64,000 nt of DNA from an uncultured Gammaproteobacteria bacterium. GTDB lineage: Bacteria; Pseudomonadota; Gammaproteobacteria; UBA4575. How positions within the stretch are numbered: position 1 is the first letter of the stretch; every line of letters starts with the position of its first letter. The notes beneath the pieces were generated by a model that saw only the letters and a program-made list of their open reading frames with translations, was not told the origin of the DNA and searched no databases. Below, piece after piece: positions 436-19,265 of the stretch. Where the stretch lies: contig CALJEX010000040.1 in NCBI GenBank assembly GCA_938074525.1, positions 18 to 64,017 on the forward strand, read 5' to 3'. The position numbers and the translations under genes were made by a program.

Positions 436-1365
436 TTACTTGGCGTTATGTAGTTGTATTGTGTTGGCGATTTGATTGGCTGTGTGTAGTGCGCGCAAGC
501 CATCAATGCCGGAAACAAGCGGTTGAGTATTGTTAAGAATACAGTCTAGAAAATGAGTGATCTCAGTGAATAGTGCATCTGATTTTTCGAAATTGAAACT
601 TTGCGAATTAATTTCACTATTTTCTCGCGTGTATATTTTTAGATCATGATTTCCAAGGTCAGCAGAAAAATAAGCATTGCCTTGGAACAGCCGCAGTTTG
701 CGTTCACTTTTAGTGCTTACTCGACTGGCGGTGACGTTGGCAACGCAATCATTGGTGAATGTGATTCGGGCGTTGGCGATATCAATATCATCAGAAAGTA
801 CGCTCATTCCTGAGGCTTGAATTGATTCGATGTCAGATTTAACAATACTAAGAATGATGTCGATATCATGAATCATTAAATCAAGGACAACATTGACATC
901 AGTGCCGCGTGCTTTAAAGGGTGATAAGCGTTGAGACTCAATGAACTTGGGTTGCTGCATGTGTTCATCCATTGCAAGCACGGTAGGGTTGAAGCGTTCA
1001 ATATGGCCAATTTGTAGTATGCAATGCTTGTCTTCGGCAATTTTGATTAACTCTTGTGCTTGCTCGGTTGTCGAAGTCATGGGTTTTTCTAGCAGTACAT
1101 GTTTGCCGCGGGATAAAAATTGTTTGGCTATTTCAAAATGTGATGGAGTGGAAGTGACGATGCTAACGGCATCGACATCATCAATTAATGTTTGAAAATC
1201 TGTGCTGGCTTTTGCATCTGGATACAAATTAGCCATTTCCTTAACGGTGGCAGAATCGCTGTCTATCAAGCCCACTAGCTGGCAATTATCCAACGCCGCA
1301 TACTTTTGAGCATGAAATTTACCCAAATAACCCGCACCAATGACCGCTATATTCACAATTCCCAT
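436..1365 (-). CDS. Gfo/Idh/MocA-family NAD(P)-dependent sugar-nucleotide oxidoreductase (GnnA/WbpB-like UDP-sugar 3-dehydrogenase candidate)
   Basis: 309 aa. N-terminal Rossmann motif MGIVNIAVIGAGYLGKFHAQ, with the catalytic EKP motif (VLLEKPM) typical of Gfo/Idh/MocA enzymes. Paired with the DegT aminotransferase downstream. Confidence 0.8.
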   Translation of the reverse strand: MGIVNIAVIGAGYLGKFHAQKYAALDNCQLVGLIDSDSATVKEMANLYPDAKASTDFQTLIDDVDAVSIVTSTPSHFEIAKQFLSRGKHVLLEKPMTSTTEQAQELIKIAEDKHCILQIGHIERFNPTVLAMDEHMQQPKFIESQRLSPFKARGTDVNVVLDLMIHDIDIILSIVKSDIESIQASGMSVLSDDIDIANARITFTNDCVANVTASRVSTKSERKLRLFQGNAYFSADLGNHDLKIYTRENSEINSQSFNFEKSDALFTEITHFLDCILNNTQPLVSGIDGLRALHTANQIANTIQLHNAK

Positions 1366-1510
1366 TCAACTAAAAATCTGTATTATAAAAACCTCGCAGT
1401 ATACGTCCTCTAGCTCAAATGTGGGCCGAAATATGGGCTCAAATATGAGCATCATCGAGTAAAAAAGACTCTTGATTAAAAAGCACTCTAATGTAGTTGA
1501 ATTCGCTGAT

Positions 1511-2086
1511 ATGCAGGTTGATATTAATACCTATGCTGGCATTGATGAAGTAGGGCGTGGACCACTTGCAGGGCCTGTGGTTGCGGCAGCGGTGATACTT
1601 GGAGACGCTCGTGAATGGTTGGGTCTTAAAGATTCAAAGATGTTAACAGCGAAACGACGCGAAGCCTGTGCCATCGAGATTAAGCAAAATGCATCGGCTT
1701 GGGCGATTGGTCGTTGTGAGCCTGAAGAAATTGATCAATACAATATTTTTTATGCGAGTTTGCTGGCCATGAAAAGAGCATTTGAAGGTATATCCCTAGT
1801 GCCAGAATTAGCGCTTGTTGATGGTAAATATAGTCCGGAGCTAGCAGTGCAGTCTTATGCGGTTATAAAAGGTGACCAACATGTGCCTGCCATCAGTGCT
1901 GCTTCTATCTTAGCTAAAGTAACAAGAGATTTAGAAATGTGTGAGTTAGATACATCGTATCCACAATATGGGTTTGCAAAACATAAAGGTTATCCTACTG
2001 CTTTTCATATTGATGCACTCAAACAACATGGTCCATGCATACATCATCGTCGAAGCTTTAAACCAGTTGCCAATGTATTAAAATGA
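1511..2086 (+). CDS. rnhB: Ribonuclease HII
   Basis: Motif [21 protein letters not shown], the RNase HII catalytic DEVGRG. Start chosen at ATG 1511 ([17 protein letters not shown]) because it aligns with the E. coli N-terminus; the track ORF begins at TTG 1472. Stop overlaps the dnaE start (ATGA). Confidence 0.88.
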
Positions 2087-5000
2087 ATCCGCAATTTGTC
2101 CACTTACGTTTGCATAGCGAATTTTCCATTGTTGATGGGCTAGTACGTATTCCTGCTTTGATGCGCAAGGTGTCTGAGCTAGAGATGCCTGCCGTTGCAT
2201 TAACAGATTTCTCAAACTTATTTGCCCTGGTTAAATTTTATCGTGCGGCGATTTCCAATGGTGTGAAGCCGATTATTGGTGCTGATGTATTAATTTCAGA
2301 CCCGCAATTAAAAGAGCGCTATCGAATTGGCTTGCTGTGTATGAATAACTCAGGCTATCGCAATTTAACTGAATTATTGACGCGTGCTTATTTAGAGGGC
2401 CAACATGGTGGTCAACCAACTATCGATCGAAGCTGGATTGATGAGTTTAATCAAGGTTTGATTGTGTTATCGGGTGGGCGTGAAGGTGATTTGGGTAAGC
2501 TGATTTTAAAACAAGACAATACGCGTATCGAGGAATGTATTAACCGGTGGAAGAAGAACTTTTCAGATCGTTTTTATATAGAGTTACAAAGAACAGGTCG
2601 TGAAGGCGAAGACGTTTATAACGAAAGTGCTTTAGACATTGCTGAAAAAAACAATCTTCCCGTCGTTGCGACCAATGATGTTAGATTTTTAACGTCAGCA
2701 GAATATGAAGCACATGAAGTACGTGTTTGTATTAACCAAGGTCGTGTGTTGTCAGATCCTCGACGAGCAAGAACTTATAGCGAACAACAATATTTACGTC
2801 CAGTAGATGAAATGGTGGCGTTATATTCAGATGTGCCGTCGGCAATTTCAAATACGATAGAAATCGCTAAGCGCTGTAATGTGCGATTAGAGTTTGGTAA
2901 AAATGTTTTACCAGAATTCCCTACTGGCGAACTTACAACAGATGAATACTTGCGAGAGCAATCTAAATTGGGATTGCAGAATCGACTGGAAAGAATTAAA
3001 GCGTCACGTGAATCTGTAGATATAGATACCTATGATCAAAGATTAGAAGTGGAGCTTGATGTGATTGAGCGCATGGGTTATCCAGGCTACTTTCTGATTG
3101 TTTCTGATTTTACTAAGTGGGCACGAGAAAATGGTGTGCCAGTGGGTCCGGGTCGTGGTTCTGGTGCAGGTTCGTTAGTTGCCTATGTTTTAGGTATTAC
3201 TGACATTGATCCACTTGAATATGATTTGTTATTTGAGCGTTTCTTAAATCCTGAGCGAGTATCAATGCCCGATTTCGATATCGATTTTTGTATGGCAGGG
3301 CGTGATCGCGTGATTGATTATGTAGCGACACGTTATGGGCGAGAAAAAGTTAGCCAGATCATCACTTACGGCACCATGGCGGCGAAAGCGGTCGTGCGTG
3401 ATGTGGGTCGTGTGCTTGGGCATCCGTATGGGTTTGTCGACCGCATTGCCAAAATGGTGCCTTTTGAAGTTGGCATGACATTGTCTAAAGCGTTAGAGCA
3501 AGAGAAAGACTTCAAGCAAATGGTAGAGGATGAGGAAGAGGTTGGGACTCTCATTGATATGGCGTTACAACTTGAAGGTCTTGCGCGTAATGCTGGCAAG
3601 CATGCAGGGGGTGTGGTGATTGCACCGTCTAAGCTAACCGATTTTACCCCGCTCTATTGTGAAGAAGGCGGCGCTAATGTTGTCACACAGTTAGATAAAG
3701 ATGATGTTGAAGCGATAGGGTTAGTTAAATTCGATTTCTTGGGTTTGCGTACGCTCACAATTATTGATCGCACCCTAGATAAAGTGAATGCGCGTTTAGC
3801 AAAAGATAATAAACCACCGGTGGATTTGAATGCTTTACCACTTGATGATGAAGCTACTTATACCTTGCTGCAAAATCAGCAAACTACTGCGGTATTTCAG
3901 TTGGAGTCTGATGGCCTGAAAGATATTTTAGGTCGCTTGAAACCTGATAAGTTTGAAGACATTGTTGCACTAGTTGCTTTATATCGACCAGGTCCATTGC
4001 AGTCAGGCATGGTAGATGATTTTATTGATCGTAAACACGGTGCATTAGTTGAATACCCTCATCCCGATTTAGAACCGATTCTAAATGAAACCTATGGCGT
4101 TATTTTATATCAAGAACAAGTAATGCAAATTGCCCAAGTTTTGGCAGGTTACTCTTTAGGTGGTGCGGATTTATTACGACGTGCCATGGGTAAAAAGAAA
4201 GCAGAAGAGATGGCAAAACAACGTGCCATTTTTGTTAAAGGCGCGACTGAGCGTAACGTCGAAGATACTAATGCGAACTTCATATTTGATTTAATGGAGA
4301 AGTTTGCAGGCTACGGTTTTAACAAATCACATTCAGTAGCCTACGCCATGCTGTCATACCAAACCGCGTGGTTAAAAGCACATTATCCTGCTGAATTTAT
4401 GGCGTCGGTGCTTTCTGCTGATATGGATAACACTGATAAAGTTGTGCATCTACGCGAAGAATGTAAAACCATGGGTTTAGAAGTTTTGCCTCCTTGCGCT
4501 AATGCTTCTTATTATGGTTTCACCGTGACTGAAGATCAGAAGATTGTTTACGGTTTGGGTGCGATTAAAGGCGTGGGTGAAGCTGCTATTGAATCATTAG
4601 TCAAAGAGCGAGATAAAGAAGGACAGTATAAATCGCTGAATGATTTTTGTATGCGACTAGAAACACAAAAATTTAATCGTCGCAGTATGGAAGCGATGAT
4701 TCGTTCCGGTGGGTTAGATTCATGCGGGCATACGCGTGCAACATTAATGCATCATTTACCAAGAGCGATGCAAACAGCTGAACAACATCATCGTAATGAT
4801 GATATTGGGCAGAACGATATGTTTGGCGGCGGACAAGTCGTTGCGCGTGAAGGGGTGATCGAAGAAAAACCAGAATGGGATGAAGATTCTTTGCTGGCAG
4901 CGGAACGCGAAACACTAGGCTTGTATTTTTCCGGTCATCCTGTGGATCAATATCGAGACGAATTGGTGAGTCTAGCAGGTAAAACACTTAAAGATCATTT

Positions 5001-13326: not shown

Positions 13327-15255
13327 TTGCCAATCGAAAATTATTTCTCCTCAAAAGGAGAACTCGCTCAAAAAATCAAAGGTTTTAAGTATCGTCCTCA
13401 GCAAGTTACGATGGCGAGTGCTGTGCATCAAGCGATTAACGATTCAAGTACCTTAGTGGTTGAAGCAGGCACTGGTGTTGGTAAAACATTCGCGTATCTA
13501 ATTCCCGCGATGTTGTCTGGTAAGAAGGTTGTGGTGTCGACAGGCACACGACACTTGCAAGATCAGCTATTTTATACAGACTTGCCGCTACTGCAGCATG
13601 CAGCCTCGCTCTCTATTAATGCCTCTATCCTCAAAGGCCGCTCAAACTATTTGTGTAAGTACCGCTTTGAACGATTTGAGCATGATCTTGGCGATAATCC
13701 AAGACTGACAAGTGCTTATAGTGAAGTGAAAGATTGGTCGCTTGTCACTAAAACAGGCGATGTTGCCGAAGTGAATGAATTGTCAGAGCAATCTGAAATT
13801 TGGCAGCATGTAACTTCCACGCGCGATAATTGTTTAGGTGGCGAATGCCCAGATTATAATAAGTGTCACGTGCTGAAAGCACGAAAGCGTGCGCAAGAAT
13901 CTGATCTTGTCGTAATTAACCATCATTTATTGTGTGCAGATCTAGTGCTTAAAGGAGAAGGCTTTGGTGAACTGTTGCCAAGTGCCGATGTTTTTGTTCT
14001 GGATGAGGCGCATCAGCTGACGGATGTGCTGCCAAATTTCTTTGGTAGTAATCTTAGTAGTCGCCAGTTGCAAGATTTGGTTGCAGATATTAGTAAGGAA
14101 TGTTCTAAGCTGACGAGTAATATTACATCAATCAGTAAAAGTTATTATGCGGTGCTAGATGTAGTGGAGAAATTTTATAGTAGCGTTGCTAAGAAGATGA
14201 AAGAACAGCGTGAGCTATGGCGCGATGTTATTAGTGATAAAACTGTTCATGCTGCATATGAGAAATTAACATCGTGTCTGCTTGTGTTGGAAGATCAATT
14301 AGCTGCAATAGGAGGAGAATCTCCTGGTTTGGCCCAGTCGTATAAGAGAGTCAGTGAAATTAATGGTTTGTTAGATGAGTTTAAAAGCGTTGATAGCAAA
14401 TTTGTTCAGTGGATAGAGTTAGGTCGAAGACGTTTTCGCTTGGGCAGTGTTCCATTGAATGTGGCAATCCCTTATCAGAAAGCAATTCAAGAATACAAAT
14501 GTGCTTGGATTTATACTTCAGCTACCCTCACGGCTAAGCAAAGCTTTAGTCATTTTACGGAGCAATTAGGTCTACAAGATTCGGAATGCGTTATGTGTGA
14601 TAGCCCATTTGACTATGCAGGACAATCTCGTTTGTATTTGCCCTCAATTAATCTTCAACCAAATGAACAGGGTTATACTGCAGAAGTTGTAAAAAGATCG
14701 ATGCCATTATTGAAAGCGAGTCGAGGAAATGCATTTATGCTATTTACTAGTCATAAGGCATTAAATCAAGCTGCTGATTTGTTGAAAGATAGTGCGTTTA
14801 ATGTATTGGTTCAAGGTGCTGCAGCCAAGCGAGAGCTTTTGAAGCAATTCCAAGAAGCTAGTAATTGCGTGTTGTTAGGTACGCAAAGTTTTTGGGAAGG
14901 TGTAGATGTTAAGGGTCAAGGTCTACGCTTAGTTATCATCGATAAACTGCCGTTTGTTTCTCCAGCTGATCCGCTAGTACGTGCGCGTTCAAAAGCATTA
15001 GAAGAGGCGGGAGAAAATCCATTTATGGTCTACCAAATTCCCCAAGCGATTTTAAATCTTAAGCAAGGGGTGGGGCGTTTAATTCGTGGCGAGCAAGATT
15101 GTGGTGTGGTCGTGCTGATGGATCCTAGGTTAAAATCTAAAGCCTATGGAAAATCATTCTTAAAAAGTTTGCCACCGATGACAATTAGTGAAGACGAAGC
15201 ACAAATCAAACAATTTCTAGATATTATTCATGACAGTGAAACTGCTGGGTATTGA
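13327..15255 (+). CDS. yoaA: DinG-family (Rad3-like, DEAD_2) ATP-dependent DNA helicase, YoaA-type
   Basis: 642 aa. N-terminus GELAQKIKGFKYRPQQVTMASAVHQAI aligns with E. coli YoaA. Walker A AGTGVGKTFAYLIP, a 4-Cys cluster region and a DEAH box (VLDEAHQL). Adjacent to tsaB (yeaZ) as in E. coli. Confidence 0.88.
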   Translation: MPIENYFSSKGELAQKIKGFKYRPQQVTMASAVHQAINDSSTLVVEAGTGVGKTFAYLIPAMLSGKKVVVSTGTRHLQDQLFYTDLPLLQHAASLSINASILKGRSNYLCKYRFERFEHDLGDNPRLTSAYSEVKDWSLVTKTGDVAEVNELSEQSEIWQHVTSTRDNCLGGECPDYNKCHVLKARKRAQESDLVVINHHLLCADLVLKGEGFGELLPSADVFVLDEAHQLTDVLPNFFGSNLSSRQLQDLVADISKECSKLTSNITSISKSYYAVLDVVEKFYSSVAKKMKEQRELWRDVISDKTVHAAYEKLTSCLLVLEDQLAAIGGESPGLAQSYKRVSEINGLLDEFKSVDSKFVQWIELGRRRFRLGSVPLNVAIPYQKAIQEYKCAWIYTSATLTAKQSFSHFTEQLGLQDSECVMCDSPFDYAGQSRLYLPSINLQPNEQGYTAEVVKRSMPLLKASRGNAFMLFTSHKALNQAADLLKDSAFNVLVQGAAAKRELLKQFQEASNCVLLGTQSFWEGVDVKGQGLRLVIIDKLPFVSPADPLVRARSKALEEAGENPFMVYQIPQAILNLKQGVGRLIRGEQDCGVVVLMDPRLKSKAYGKSFLKSLPPMTISEDEAQIKQFLDIIHDSETAGY

Positions 15256-15910
15256 GACTGCTACCGAGGCTTGTTCTGCCGCCGTGCTTGTGGATGGCGA
15301 GGTGGTTGAACGATTTGAAGTCTCGCCACGTAAACATAACGAACTCATCCTTCCTATGTGTGAGGCCGTATTAGCAGATGCCGGTATTTCTTTAAAGCAA
15401 TTAGACGGTATTGCCTTTGGCTGTGGTCCTGGCGCGTTTACTGGAATCCGTATTGCTGCAAGTGTGACTCAGGGGATTGCGCTAGCCCATGATTTGCCTG
15501 TCGCCAGTATCTCAACATTAGCGAATCTCGCCTATCAGGCTGATGAAGTTGAGGTGGATGAATTGATAATGCCGGCGATAGATGCACGCATGGATGAAAT
15601 ATATTGGGGTTTATATAAGAGAACACGAGATAGTGTCGAGCTTGTTGCTGAGGAACGAGTGCAACTGCCTGGTGAGGTATCTGTCGTTGATAGTATTTCA
15701 TGTGGTCTAGGTACGGGATGGGGTGCTTATAAGCAGGTTCTACAGCAAAGAGTAAACAGTGATAGAGAAAATATTATTGAAGATGCCTTGCCCCATGCAA
15801 AAGTTACTGTGCAACTCGCAAAAAATAAATACCTTAGTCAGCAAATGGTAGATGCAATGCATGCGCTACCAGTGTACTTGCGTAATCAAGTGGTACATCA
15901 GAAAAAATGA
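15230..15910 (+). CDS. tsaB: tRNA threonylcarbamoyladenosine biosynthesis protein TsaB (YeaZ)
   Basis: 226 aa. N-terminus LLGIETATEACSAAVL is typical of TsaB. Overlaps the yoaA 3' end by 26 nt. Confidence 0.85.
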   Translation: MTVKLLGIETATEACSAAVLVDGEVVERFEVSPRKHNELILPMCEAVLADAGISLKQLDGIAFGCGPGAFTGIRIAASVTQGIALAHDLPVASISTLANLAYQADEVEVDELIMPAIDARMDEIYWGLYKRTRDSVELVAEERVQLPGEVSVVDSISCGLGTGWGAYKQVLQQRVNSDRENIIEDALPHAKVTVQLAKNKYLSQQMVDAMHALPVYLRNQVVHQKK

Positions 15911-16329
15911 GTATGGCTCCATTTCATCTGGCATTTCCTGTCACTAATCTTGCTGCTGTTCGTGAGTTTTATTGTTCGGCATTAAGGTGTGACATTGGCA
16001 GAGAGGGCGATCGCTGGATTGATTTCAACTTCTTTGGTCACCAAATCACTGCGCACTTAGATGGAACTGCTGTGCATCAACCAAGTCGAAATCAAGTGGA
16101 TAATAAAGCAGTGCCTGCGAGACATTTTGGTGTGATTTTGGATTGGAATGCATGGGATGAATTGCTTGCACGCATAAAGTCATATGATATTGCATTCTAT
16201 ATTGAACCGTATACTCGGTTTGCAGGAGAAGCAGGCGAACAAAGAACTTTTTTTATTCAGGATCCAAGCGAAAATTTTTTAGAATTTAAATGTTTTCAAG
16301 ATAAATCTTATATATTTAGAAAAGAATGA
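15907..16329 (+). CDS. VOC-family (glyoxalase/bleomycin-resistance/dioxygenase fold) protein
   Basis: 140 aa. The FHLAFPV N-terminal beta-strand motif is typical of VOC proteins. Translationally coupled to tsaB (ATGA). Confidence 0.6.
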   Translation: MSMAPFHLAFPVTNLAAVREFYCSALRCDIGREGDRWIDFNFFGHQITAHLDGTAVHQPSRNQVDNKAVPARHFGVILDWNAWDELLARIKSYDIAFYIEPYTRFAGEAGEQRTFFIQDPSENFLEFKCFQDKSYIFRKE

Positions 16330-16331
16330 TC

Positions 16332-16694
16332 ATGAAGAAATTAATACTACTATCTTTAATGTTGAGTACTTCAGTGTATGCGCAACCACCACAGGTGGTG
16401 AAAGCAGAAGCTAGCCTAAAAACAAATCAATTATTTGATGTTTAGGTAACAATACGTCATCCCGATACAGGTTGGGATCACTACGCGAACGAATGGATTG
16501 TGTTAGACGGCGATGGTAAAGAGATTGCTAAACGGACCTTATATCATCCTCATGTGAATGAGCAGCCATTCACGCGATATGTTAGAGATATAGTGATTCC
16601 AGCAGATGTTAGCAAAGTAACAATAACGGCAAAATGTAATAAAGGGCATGATTCAAAGCCCTATGTTCTTATGGGTAAAGAAAATAAGCAGTAA
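16332..16694 (+). pseudogene. Small secreted superoxide-reductase-like (desulfoferrodoxin Fe-domain-like) protein interrupted by an in-frame TAG at 16443..16445
   Basis: ATG at 16332 gives a signal peptide MKKLILLSLMLSTSVYA, then QPPQVVKAEASLKTNQLFDV, then TAG, then (same frame) VTIRHPDTGWDHYANEWIVLDGDGKE...TAKCNKGHDSKPYVLMGKENKQ. The segment HPDTxxDHYxxEWIxL plus C-terminal CNxGH resembles the SOR centre-II pattern (IPHPNTTEHHIRYIEL ... CNIHGLW). The track shows only the post-stop piece (16500..16694). Confidence 0.45.
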
Positions 16695-16731
16695 AGTTTT
16701 TCAGGCTTTACTGCTATGTCTCTTATTTGCT

Positions 16732-18451
16732 TTAGTGTCTCTTTTTTTTCACAATGAAGACATTTTTTTGCAGTTCATTGCCGACATTGGTATTGCGCTT
16801 AATTATTTTAGCTAAAGTTGTTTTCTTGATTTTTCTTAGCTCCTTACCCCAAAAATTGTTTTCATACCAGAATCGATCGCCATCACGTAGTCTTTCAAAC
16901 TGATCTTTAAGAGTAGTGTAAAAAACTTCGCCAACCAAGGCATCGTCTATATGATCTTCTGCTAAACCACCTACCCATAAATCGACATGATCAACACTGT
17001 CGTAAGCATTCTCTAGTCTTGCTTGAACTTCTGGGTTAGACGATATTTCTGAGAATGATACTACTGGCTCTAAGCCTAACTTTTTGCGGGTGTCATTATA
17101 GCTGAGTAGGCCGTGATCACGACCTCTTTGGATATTTAATGAAGCTAAATCAAAGCCACCTTTGCCGGGTTGTCCAAATAAGAAATTCCTAACATCGTCT
17201 ATCACGAATATGTCCAAGTTTTGGCAGGTTTGTGATGCTAAACCTCTTAGTATTGGTCCGATATTGCCTTGTTCTGTTAACAGGTGTGGTGCAAAAAATG
17301 CTTCACGCAGTGAGATGTGTCCATGGCGTGTTTCTTTGCCATTCCGATTTAATCTCATAATTCTTAGTGATAATAAACTATGACCTAAGCGATATGCGGC
17401 AGTAGAGAATTCATTTGCTATGCGGGCATCAACGTCAGGCTTGTAACCCTCGTACTTAGATAAGGCATGTTTGCCTAAAAGGACCGGGATGAATTCATTG
17501 TAAGTAATGACTTGCATTTGCGCTGCAACAATACGTCTGGCGCGTTGATAAATTTCATCACCTGACAGGTGATGATTTTTTTGTTTAATCTTTTTGGCAA
17601 GGCGATTGTGTTCGCGAACAAACAAGGTATGCATAGTAGTTAAGCCTATTTGTTCATTTGCACGCACATCACCCGCTAAAAATAATTTGTCACTACTGCC
17701 GCCGGCATTGCTTAAGCCAGCAGTATTAAAAGGTAGTAACCCTTTTTTACTCGTTTTAAGTTTGCCTCAGCCATTCATTTTACGCAGTTCTATAGCACGA
17801 TCTTCATCGGATCCATATACGTTTGAAGCATCTATCCAGCCTGTGATTTCATTTAACTGTTGTCTGGGGTTGGAGCCGGGTTCATAAATTGACCTATTAA
17901 AACTCATGACGACACTTCCTGAGCTGTCTGGGTCGAACTGCGGGTCCCCGCTAGGAATTAAAATTGGTGCTAATTCTTCGGGACTAACGCCATCTGTAAT
18001 ATCTATATCGTGATCTAGGAATTGACCCCATTGCCATAGAAAATCGCTAGCGTGTTTTTTTGTTTGTGTTGAGTTTGTTTGTGACATGACAGCATTGCTA
18101 ATGTCTCTTGGGTTAGGTCTATCAATGCCTGCCATCGCGCTAGATTGATCGCTGTACCCCGCTTCTGTTGTACGAATCAATTCTATATCGGCAGCATTCA
18201 TTTCATGGTCACTCAGATTGTTATTGCTACCATCAATGGTTCTATAAAATATTTCTGAATGATTTTTTTTTATATTTATTATGATTTCTTTCAATTCTTC
18301 TAACAGGAGATGAATTAGGGTTAGACATGGTGTGATCAGCTTGATTTAGAAGGTCTTCGGTAGGGGAGATTCCTTCTGAACTGTCTGATAATGCGTGCGT
18401 TGCATATATTGATATGCATAGCGCGGCTACGCTTATAGAAATATATTTCAT
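16732..18451 (-). pseudogene. Bacterial animal-type heme peroxidase (peroxidase-cyclooxygenase superfamily), disrupted by a +1 frameshift in an A9 run and an in-frame TGA
   Basis: Three track ORFs (18242..18451, 17767..18294, 16732..17667) concatenate into one protein of about 570 aa. It has a signal peptide MKYISISVAALCISIYATHALS, then RTIDGSNNNL, then the distal heme pocket FLWQWGQFLDHDIDIT. Further on are VDASNVYGS, LLPFNTAGLSNAGGSSDKLFLAGDVRANEQIGLTTMHTLFVREHNRLA, the proximal His in YRLGHSLL, and DLWVGGLAEDH. All are hallmark animal heme peroxidase motifs. Frame change at T9 18263..18271 (A9 on the coding strand). In-frame TGA at 17767..17769. Confidence 0.78.
18263..18271 (-). repeat. 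A9 homopolymer (T9 on the plus strand) at the peroxidase frameshift site
   Basis: With A8 instead of A9 the reading becomes continuous: ...RRIERNHNKYKKNHSEIFYRTIDGSNNNL. Confidence 0.7.
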
Positions 18452-18632
18452 TTCAGTCCCTCATTTAAAATGATGTGCTTAAAAGAATAATATTCACTAT
18501 GATTGTGAATTTTTATTTAAAAATTTTTAAATTGTTGTTTTATTTTTTGATTCTTTATTTTTGTCAGATGTAAGCATTTAAGAATGTGAACTAGATCACG
18601 CAATTAACTTTAGTATGTATGGATTTTATTGC

Positions 18633-19265
18633 TTATGGTGGGCCCGATAGGGCTAAGTTTATTGCTAGCAATATAAAGATAATCGCAGTAAGCCGATTGA
18701 TAGATTTATAATTTACAGATTTTATAAGTGTTATGTTTTTATATCTCGCAGTAATAATGCTAATGCTGCCAAAGATGATTGCAACCAAGGTGGCGAACAC
18801 CATTCCTAAAAAGATAATACTGATATGTGGTTGCGTTGATGAGGAAGGTATAAATTGAGGCAAAAAAGCTAAGAAGAATAACGCTATTTTAGGATTGAGC
18901 GTGTTGATTAGTAACCCTTTTGTGTAAAACGATGTGTATCTTTGGTTCGTATCGATCGGTTTTTTGTTATTAGTATTGCTCGATGTGAGTATTTTATAGG
19001 CTAGGTATAAAAGATATCCTGCGCCTATATATTTTAAGCCGGTAAATGCAATTTCAGATGTTTGGATGATTAACGAGATGCCTAACGCGGCGGCAGTAGT
19101 ATGAATCAAATTGCCACTTGCTAATCCTAGTGCGGTAAGAAGGCCTGCTTTAGCCCCATGATTTAGTGACTGTGTGATTAAAAATATTATATCAGGGCCG
19201 GGTGCAATAATTAAAAGCAGAGATGTGATAACAAAGTAGCTGAATTCAGGCTGATCTATCATCAT
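18633..19265 (-). CDS. LysE/RhtB-family amino-acid exporter
   Basis: 210 aa, about 6 TM segments. N-terminal APGPDIIFLITQS motif typical of LysE/RhtB translocators. Confidence 0.72.
   Translation of the reverse strand: MMIDQPEFSYFVITSLLLIIAPGPDIIFLITQSLNHGAKAGLLTALGLASGNLIHTTAAALGISLIIQTSEIAFTGLKYIGAGYLLYLAYKILTSSNTNNKKPIDTNQRYTSFYTKGLLINTLNPKIALFFLAFLPQFIPSSSTQPHISIIFLGMVFATLVAIIFGSISIITARYKNITLIKSVNYKSINRLTAIIFILLAINLALSGPP

Follow-up and report, generated by a model that had tools for sequence, protein, structure and literature searches.

Why should two neighbouring genes both be broken in a stretch of DNA whose other genes are all intact? The question is raised by a 64,000-nt segment of contig CALJEX010000040.1 from an uncultured gammaproteobacterium (the window, i.e., the whole stretch that was analyzed). 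Here, the interval between a gene of the VOC/glyoxalase family and a lysE-family gene consists of two convergent genes, one for an animal-haem peroxidase and one for a small histidine-rich secreted protein, and both are interrupted. An earlier sequence-only reading had seen in them a horizontally acquired, AT-rich islet for defence against reactive oxygen species (ROS) that is now under relaxed selection, or alternatively a region of poor sequence quality. We consider it probable that the locus holds two native, dispensable genes, both for exported proteins, that have truly lost their function and have done so very recently. Both genes would have been vertically inherited, would be non-essential and would just have been knocked out in this strain: in the peroxidase, a Ser codon would have turned into TGA and a poly-A run would have slipped by +1, and in the small gene a Ser codon would have turned into TAG. 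The features of the locus are as follows.

16732..18451, minus strand: animal-haem peroxidase gene with a Sec signal peptide; a pseudogene here, with two lesions
17767..17769, minus strand: premature TGA of the peroxidase, codon 228 of the repaired 572-codon gene
18263..18271, minus strand: A9 run (T9 on the plus strand), one A too many
16326..16694, plus strand: small secreted-protein gene, 122 aa, immunoglobulin (Ig)-like fold, conserved histidines; a pseudogene here
16443..16445, plus strand: premature TAG of the small gene, codon 40
18452..18632, minus strand: AT-rich intergenic region 5' of the peroxidase, with a guanine-plus-cytosine (GC) fraction of 0.232; presumed promoter region
16687..16715, no strand given: hairpin with a 10–13 bp stem that spans the small-gene stop, in the 37-nt inter-gene spacer
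15907..16329, plus strand: VOC/glyoxalase-family gene, an intact flank whose stop overlaps the small-gene start
18633..19265, minus strand: LysE-family exporter gene, an intact flank

The peroxidase gene appears as two open reading frames (ORFs), one with the signal peptide (18451..18242) and one with the domain (from 18294), which lie in different frames and overlap at the A9 run. With A8 instead of A9, translation continues as ...NKYKKNHSEIFYRTIDG... and falls into line with the orthologues, whose Lys-rich linker has A5–A7 at the matching site. A9 is the longest homopolymer of the window; the 8-nt homopolymers elsewhere, i.e., two in flanking genes and one more within the peroxidase, are all in frame. 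Repaired by removing one A and reading the TGA as a sense codon, the peroxidase has 572 residues. It matches PF03098 with E 1.5e-163 and 545.7 bits (cut-off 25) over profile positions 1–530 of 530, and intact orthologues of 571–574 residues align with it from end to end (100% of its length) at up to 84% identity. The earlier identification as a peroxidase was hence correct, and it extends to a full-length animal-haem peroxidase. The TGA aligns with Ser, or with Thr in more distant homologues. At this site seven orthologues have the Ser codons TCT, TCC, TCA or TCG, so that a change from TCA to TGA would be a single transversion. Both the distal Arg/Glu and the proximal His come after this stop. 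The active-site motifs WGQFLDHD, GDVRANEQ, AYRLGHS and QRGRDHG are kept in the window copy, and the first three are invariant in 16 sequences including this one and align with the cyanobacterial enzyme CyanoPOX (PDB 8S6C). As the A9 frameshift and the TGA leave no uninterrupted reading frame, the window copy is a pseudogene member of the animal haem peroxidase family, in the bacterial branch of the peroxidase-cyclooxygenase superfamily, which is its Family 6 (PMC4420034).

CyanoPOX is the closest solved relative (phmmer E 3.7e-169 over the whole domain). In Cyanobacterium sp. TDX16 it has been described as a 'bacterial lactoperoxidase'; the enzyme is monomeric, carries haem b and uses hydrogen peroxide (H2O2) to oxidise iodide and aromatic compounds (PMC11776367). 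By analogy, the intact orthologues would perform an H2O2-dependent oxidation of iodide or aromatics outside the cytoplasm, and the intact peroxidase of this strain would be a haem b, lactoperoxidase-like enzyme that used H2O2 on halides or small aromatics there.

In the small gene, the frame past the TAG runs unbroken to a TAA at 16692–16694. The protein P0121 is identical to the window protein save for a Ser at the stop position. The signal peptide assigned by inspection, MIMKKLILLSLMLSTSVYA, is of the Sec type, with cleavage before QPP. Databases hold 344 homologues at E ≤ 0.001, and the family keeps H45, D47, G49, W50, R70, L72, H74, P75, H76 and V77 invariant, together with E79, Q80, P81 and R84, which gives a motif HPHVxEQP. 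H52 is nearly invariant, many members have Asp instead of Cys104, and His108 shows no conservation. The protein matched no Pfam or NCBIfam family. Its AlphaFold model (predicted local distance difference test, pLDDT, 88.8) is a seven-stranded Ig-like sandwich. The intact product would be a secreted β-sandwich protein with an invariant histidine cluster; that it binds a metal is a guess.

The three inactivating lesions, i.e., TAG, TGA and homopolymer shift, are thus all present in the sequence as had been reported, and the lesion-free surroundings are equally real: the other 50 ORFs are unbroken and fill 92% of the window (coding density about 92% by ORF list, 95–96% if the two broken genes are included). 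ORFs from tilS to dsbC are equal in length to their orthologues in the related sequences L001–L003. Three random lesions would fall into one adjacent gene pair with a chance of 0.0047, which makes a random clustering unlikely. At the lesion density of the pair, about 85 lesions would be expected in the 59 kb of other coding sequence, where we found none.

Both genes stand at a native site. At least 10 related lineages, with valS 82–93% identical, share the order valS-lysE-peroxidase-small gene-VOC-tsaB, and in related metagenome-assembled genomes (MAGs) it continues past tsaB with dinG-ispF-ispD-ftsB-eno-kdsA-pyrG-tilS. The site and the order recur in L001–L006, L009, L014, L085, L087, L088 and L167, and by hand tally both genes are intact in eight related lineages. 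These relatives are uncultured marine Gammaproteobacteria; L014, a syntenic MAG, bears the label Thiotrichales. The related MAGs include two closed genomes of about 2.7 Mb, one of which (L003/L008) keeps the gene order. Since the order is shared with close relatives, the pair is not a foreign insert, and the synteny comparison from tsaB to valS, which had been proposed to reveal one, shows an interval common to the relatives.

Composition points the same way. Compared with the 50 flanking genes, the two genes have GC z-scores of -0.8 and -1.7 and z-scores of -0.5 and -0.9 for GC at third codon positions (GC3), and the codon-usage distance of both lies within the range of flanking genes of the same size. 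Of 124 segments of equal size, 9 have a tetranucleotide distance as large as that of 16330–18632 or larger. A foreign composition of the gene pair was hence rejected on all four measures, and the proposed check of GC and tetranucleotides places the interval within the range of its flanks. As for the 'AT-rich insert', AT richness is confined to the intergenic spacer: the region 5' of the peroxidase is indeed such a stretch, with 181 nt at the low GC listed above. Several other intergenic spacers of the window are equally AT-rich, and the matching spacer in relatives has 164–199 nt and GC 0.21–0.35.

We therefore regard a small, horizontally acquired and now decaying ROS-defence islet as very improbable, and for any recent time scale it is already contradicted. 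In its favour one may cite the very AT-rich spacer upstream of the peroxidase, the occurrence of similar peroxidases in many phyla, which indicates that the family moves between lineages over long times, and a variable valS-lysE junction in one relative, L167, with three extra genes (Exo_endo_phos, cation efflux and PhoD, ENA ERZ26696264 contig_1, 686–3878). This is outweighed by the native composition, by the identical position in the related lineages down to 82% valS identity and by the conservation of the AT-rich spacer itself. Moreover, the locus has no mobility genes and no flanking repeats beyond chance-length matches, and the 64-kb window contains no tRNA genes and no Rfam families at gathering score.

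The damage to both genes is very recent. At columns that are invariant in 15 other peroxidases, the window peroxidase has no private substitution, compared with 0–14 in intact homologues. A near-identical strain is represented by L084, a 3119-bp contig from run ERR9287632 that is 99.87% identical to window positions 14464–17582, with four substitutions and no gaps in 3119 positions. Over the 851 nt of the peroxidase that it covers before ending at 17582, L084 is identical to the window. At 16444 the window has A (TAG) and L084 has C (TCG, Ser), a single transversion, and the TAG is either a strain-level polymorphism or an error. The change at 15883 is synonymous in tsaB, and at 16063 Gly53 of the window VOC protein stands against Arg at a variable position. 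The fourth difference, at 16710, falls into the inter-gene hairpin, where A of the window pairs and T of L084 would not.

Decay of the same genes is found in related lineages as well. L088 (845–2950, JGI Ga0181580_10007058) and L089 (3670–5775, JGI Ga0181591_10013965) come from two different JGI metagenomes and have the same sequence (100% identity over 2.2 kb). Where the repaired window gene has 75 nt between the SAMAG and ASDF motifs, their peroxidase has only 35; this 40-nt shortening throws the gene out of frame and takes away a block of invariant residues. The ATG of their small gene is out of frame with the mature domain, right after an A5 run, while the neighbours lysE, VOC, tsaB and dinG are intact. 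The 96-aa truncated small-protein call of this lineage, P0173, occurs on 11 contigs. Because this lineage has lost both genes independently, the pair looks dispensable and repeatedly lost. In L167 (5001–6717) a single inserted T splits the peroxidase into 337 and 209 aa; this assembly may be error-prone. The L167 dinG is called with 614 aa, not 642. L009 (JBCDBX010000001.1, 6001–8057) keeps lysE-peroxidase-VOC-tsaB and lacks the small gene, with about 24 nt between the end of the peroxidase match (7629) and the VOC match (7653). In a hand tally of 12 lineages, both genes are broken in two, only the peroxidase in one, only the small gene in one, and the remaining eight are the intact ones given above.

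Several points weigh against a genuine loss, or against a joint one, and some of them speak for a local sequencing or assembly artefact. In that case some or all lesions would be consensus errors, for example a miscalled homopolymer plus bases wrongly polished where coverage is low or strains are mixed, and the organism itself would have both genes intact; this is the main rival, and we hold it to be a possible account, though a rather unlikely one. The lesions are known from the assembled consensus sequence alone. The frameshift sits in the longest homopolymer of the window, and runs of the A9 type are the commonest consensus error in long reads, so that an error is most plausible at this site. 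L084, an independent assembly, contradicts the TAG. With so few differences at strain level, two nonsense changes exceed the neutral expectation, and such an excess would indicate either selection for loss or an artefact. For the TGA and the A9 run, neither the N-terminal 320 residues as a protein query nor an exact 49-nt pattern in JGI metagenomes retrieved a near-identical sequence, and a protein-guided scan of the JGI metagenomes for this region reached 82% identity at best. Long-read-style assemblies of relatives also have suspicious breaks, i.e., the 1-nt insertion in the L167 peroxidase and the essential valS of L001 (6326–9086, ENA ERZ28496111 contig_22), which is called as two ORFs of 448 and 474 aa, probably through a frameshift error; the latter is a warning that assemblies of this clade carry such errors. 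As regards joint loss, the co-decay of the two genes is not significant in the 12 lineages (one-sided Fisher p about 0.13), the small gene is absent from the peroxidase loci outside the syntenic clade (164 loci compared), and it occurs alone, with no peroxidase nearby, in Cocleimonas flava and another more distant genome.

An artefact has to contend with the 59 kb of lesion-free neighbouring coding sequence and with the other 8-nt homopolymers, which are in frame. Two of the three lesions are substitutions, each of which creates a stop, and the same gene pair is truly broken in another lineage, identically in two metagenomes. Of the poor-quality alternative in the sequence-only reading, a general quality problem is excluded by the none-against-85 count, and a local error is possible. 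There is a further alternative that leaves the sequence as it stands and makes the interruptions functional, with stops recoded (selenocysteine or pyrrolysine) or read through and A9 as a phase-variation or transcriptional-slippage switch, so that active protein is made. Its attraction is that A9 follows directly on the signal peptide, a classic place for slipped-strand switching, and that RNA polymerase slips on runs of about this length. Yet orthologues with A5–A7 show that A9 is not a conserved switch, and a conserved phase-variation tract was rejected on these grounds; even with the frame restored, the TGA would still truncate the protein before the distal Arg/Glu and the proximal His. A recoded TGA, read as selenocysteine or otherwise, was likewise rejected. 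The codon aligns with Ser or Thr and never with Cys, and in crystallized CyanoPOX the position is a gap, which indicates that the residue belongs to a loop, where selenocysteine would not be plausible. Folding of the RNA past the TGA is no better than that of shuffled sequences (z -1.65), with no significant hairpin, and TGA and TAG serve as normal stops, ending 14 and 6 of the 50 flanking genes, respectively, so that the genetic code is standard. We give functional interruptions hardly any credence.

Genuine loss of two native genes is hence the explanation that we prefer. We infer that the lesions are biological, owing to relaxed selection or to a selection in favour of loss, and are not consensus errors; relaxed selection, as had been suggested from the letters alone, is the best reading of two adjacent convergent genes that are damaged while their surroundings are intact. 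That the two were lost together would point to a joint function or to the same condition of need. Independent breakage of both genes in two lineages would be a first hint that they are partners, and it hints at a functional link of the pair. A stronger version, which we put forward as doubtful speculation, is that the small protein is a dedicated periplasmic partner of the peroxidase and that the pair forms a dispensable oxidant module outside the cytoplasm, discarded as a unit by marine gammaproteobacteria time and again; the partner may, for instance, handle metal or haem, or be a subunit that processes H2O2 or superoxide. Gene neighbourhood was tried as evidence for such a link beyond the clade and was dismissed, as the pairing is found only within the syntenic clade (15 of 164 loci).

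For annotation, the two sets of ORFs are to be entered as pseudogenes, or checked against reads, and not as an acquired island; beyond annotation the case has little import. It does show that a clade of uncultured marine gammaproteobacteria has a lactoperoxidase-like enzyme at one constant position in the chromosome, and the repeated loss from this position marks the enzyme as conditionally useful and not core. Biochemical study may be worthwhile for the small-protein family, whose members are exported and share an invariant histidine cluster.

The convergent arrangement with closely spaced stop codons had been described correctly: 37 nt (16695–16731) separate the stops of the small gene and the peroxidase, and the hairpin at 16687..16715 is probably the shared terminator of both. 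Two observations concern peroxidases elsewhere. MAG ERR2762111_concoct_111 (L005, L010) has two peroxidase paralogues, 78% and 63% identical to that of the window, and only the first of them neighbours the small gene in the syntenic position. A peroxidase 58% identical to that of the window is encoded on a contig (L026, CAVYIJ010000007.1) that bears the label 'uncultured Halobacteria archaeon', which could be due to mis-binning or to inter-domain transfer.

How do the two genes and their damage compare with known systems? With CyanoPOX and LspPOX of Lyngbya the peroxidase shares the single-domain architecture of about 510 residues, and with CyanoPOX the motifs of the distal Gln/Asp/His, the distal Arg/Glu and the proximal His. 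The window copy differs from CyanoPOX in its Sec signal peptide at the N-terminus and its Lys-rich linker, in the frameshift and the TGA that break it, and in its origin from a marine gammaproteobacterium.

The small protein had been likened to superoxide reductase (SOR)/neelaredoxin (PF01880, e.g., 1DO6). In its predicted fold the small protein is, like SOR, a seven-stranded Ig-like β-sandwich of about 100 residues, its HP-x5-HY...W resembles the SOR motif HP-x4-HHI..I, and members of the close clade have a C-N-x-G-H motif near the C-terminus. SORs conserve four His and one Cys as iron ligands; in much of the small-protein family, however, Asp replaces the Cys, and the second invariant motif, YHPHVNEQPFTR, has no SOR counterpart. 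The small protein is exported, whereas the SORs known to us are cytoplasmic. PF01880 matched one of 73 family members (E 0.044), hhalign against Pyrococcus furiosus SOR (1DO6, sequence verified) gave a probability of 0.1%, and in fold comparisons generic Ig/FN3 domains scored equal to or above SOR. The description as 'two oxidative-stress genes' is thus established for the peroxidase only; for the small protein, 'SOR-like' is an unproven lead and not a classification.

The damage itself resembles that of ordinary pseudogenes and poly-A-tract frameshifts, with fresh nonsense changes and a homopolymer frameshift in non-essential genes, a gene that is otherwise perfectly conserved, and relatives with independent lesions in the same genes. 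The only difference is that two adjacent genes have been hit together, and in two lineages.

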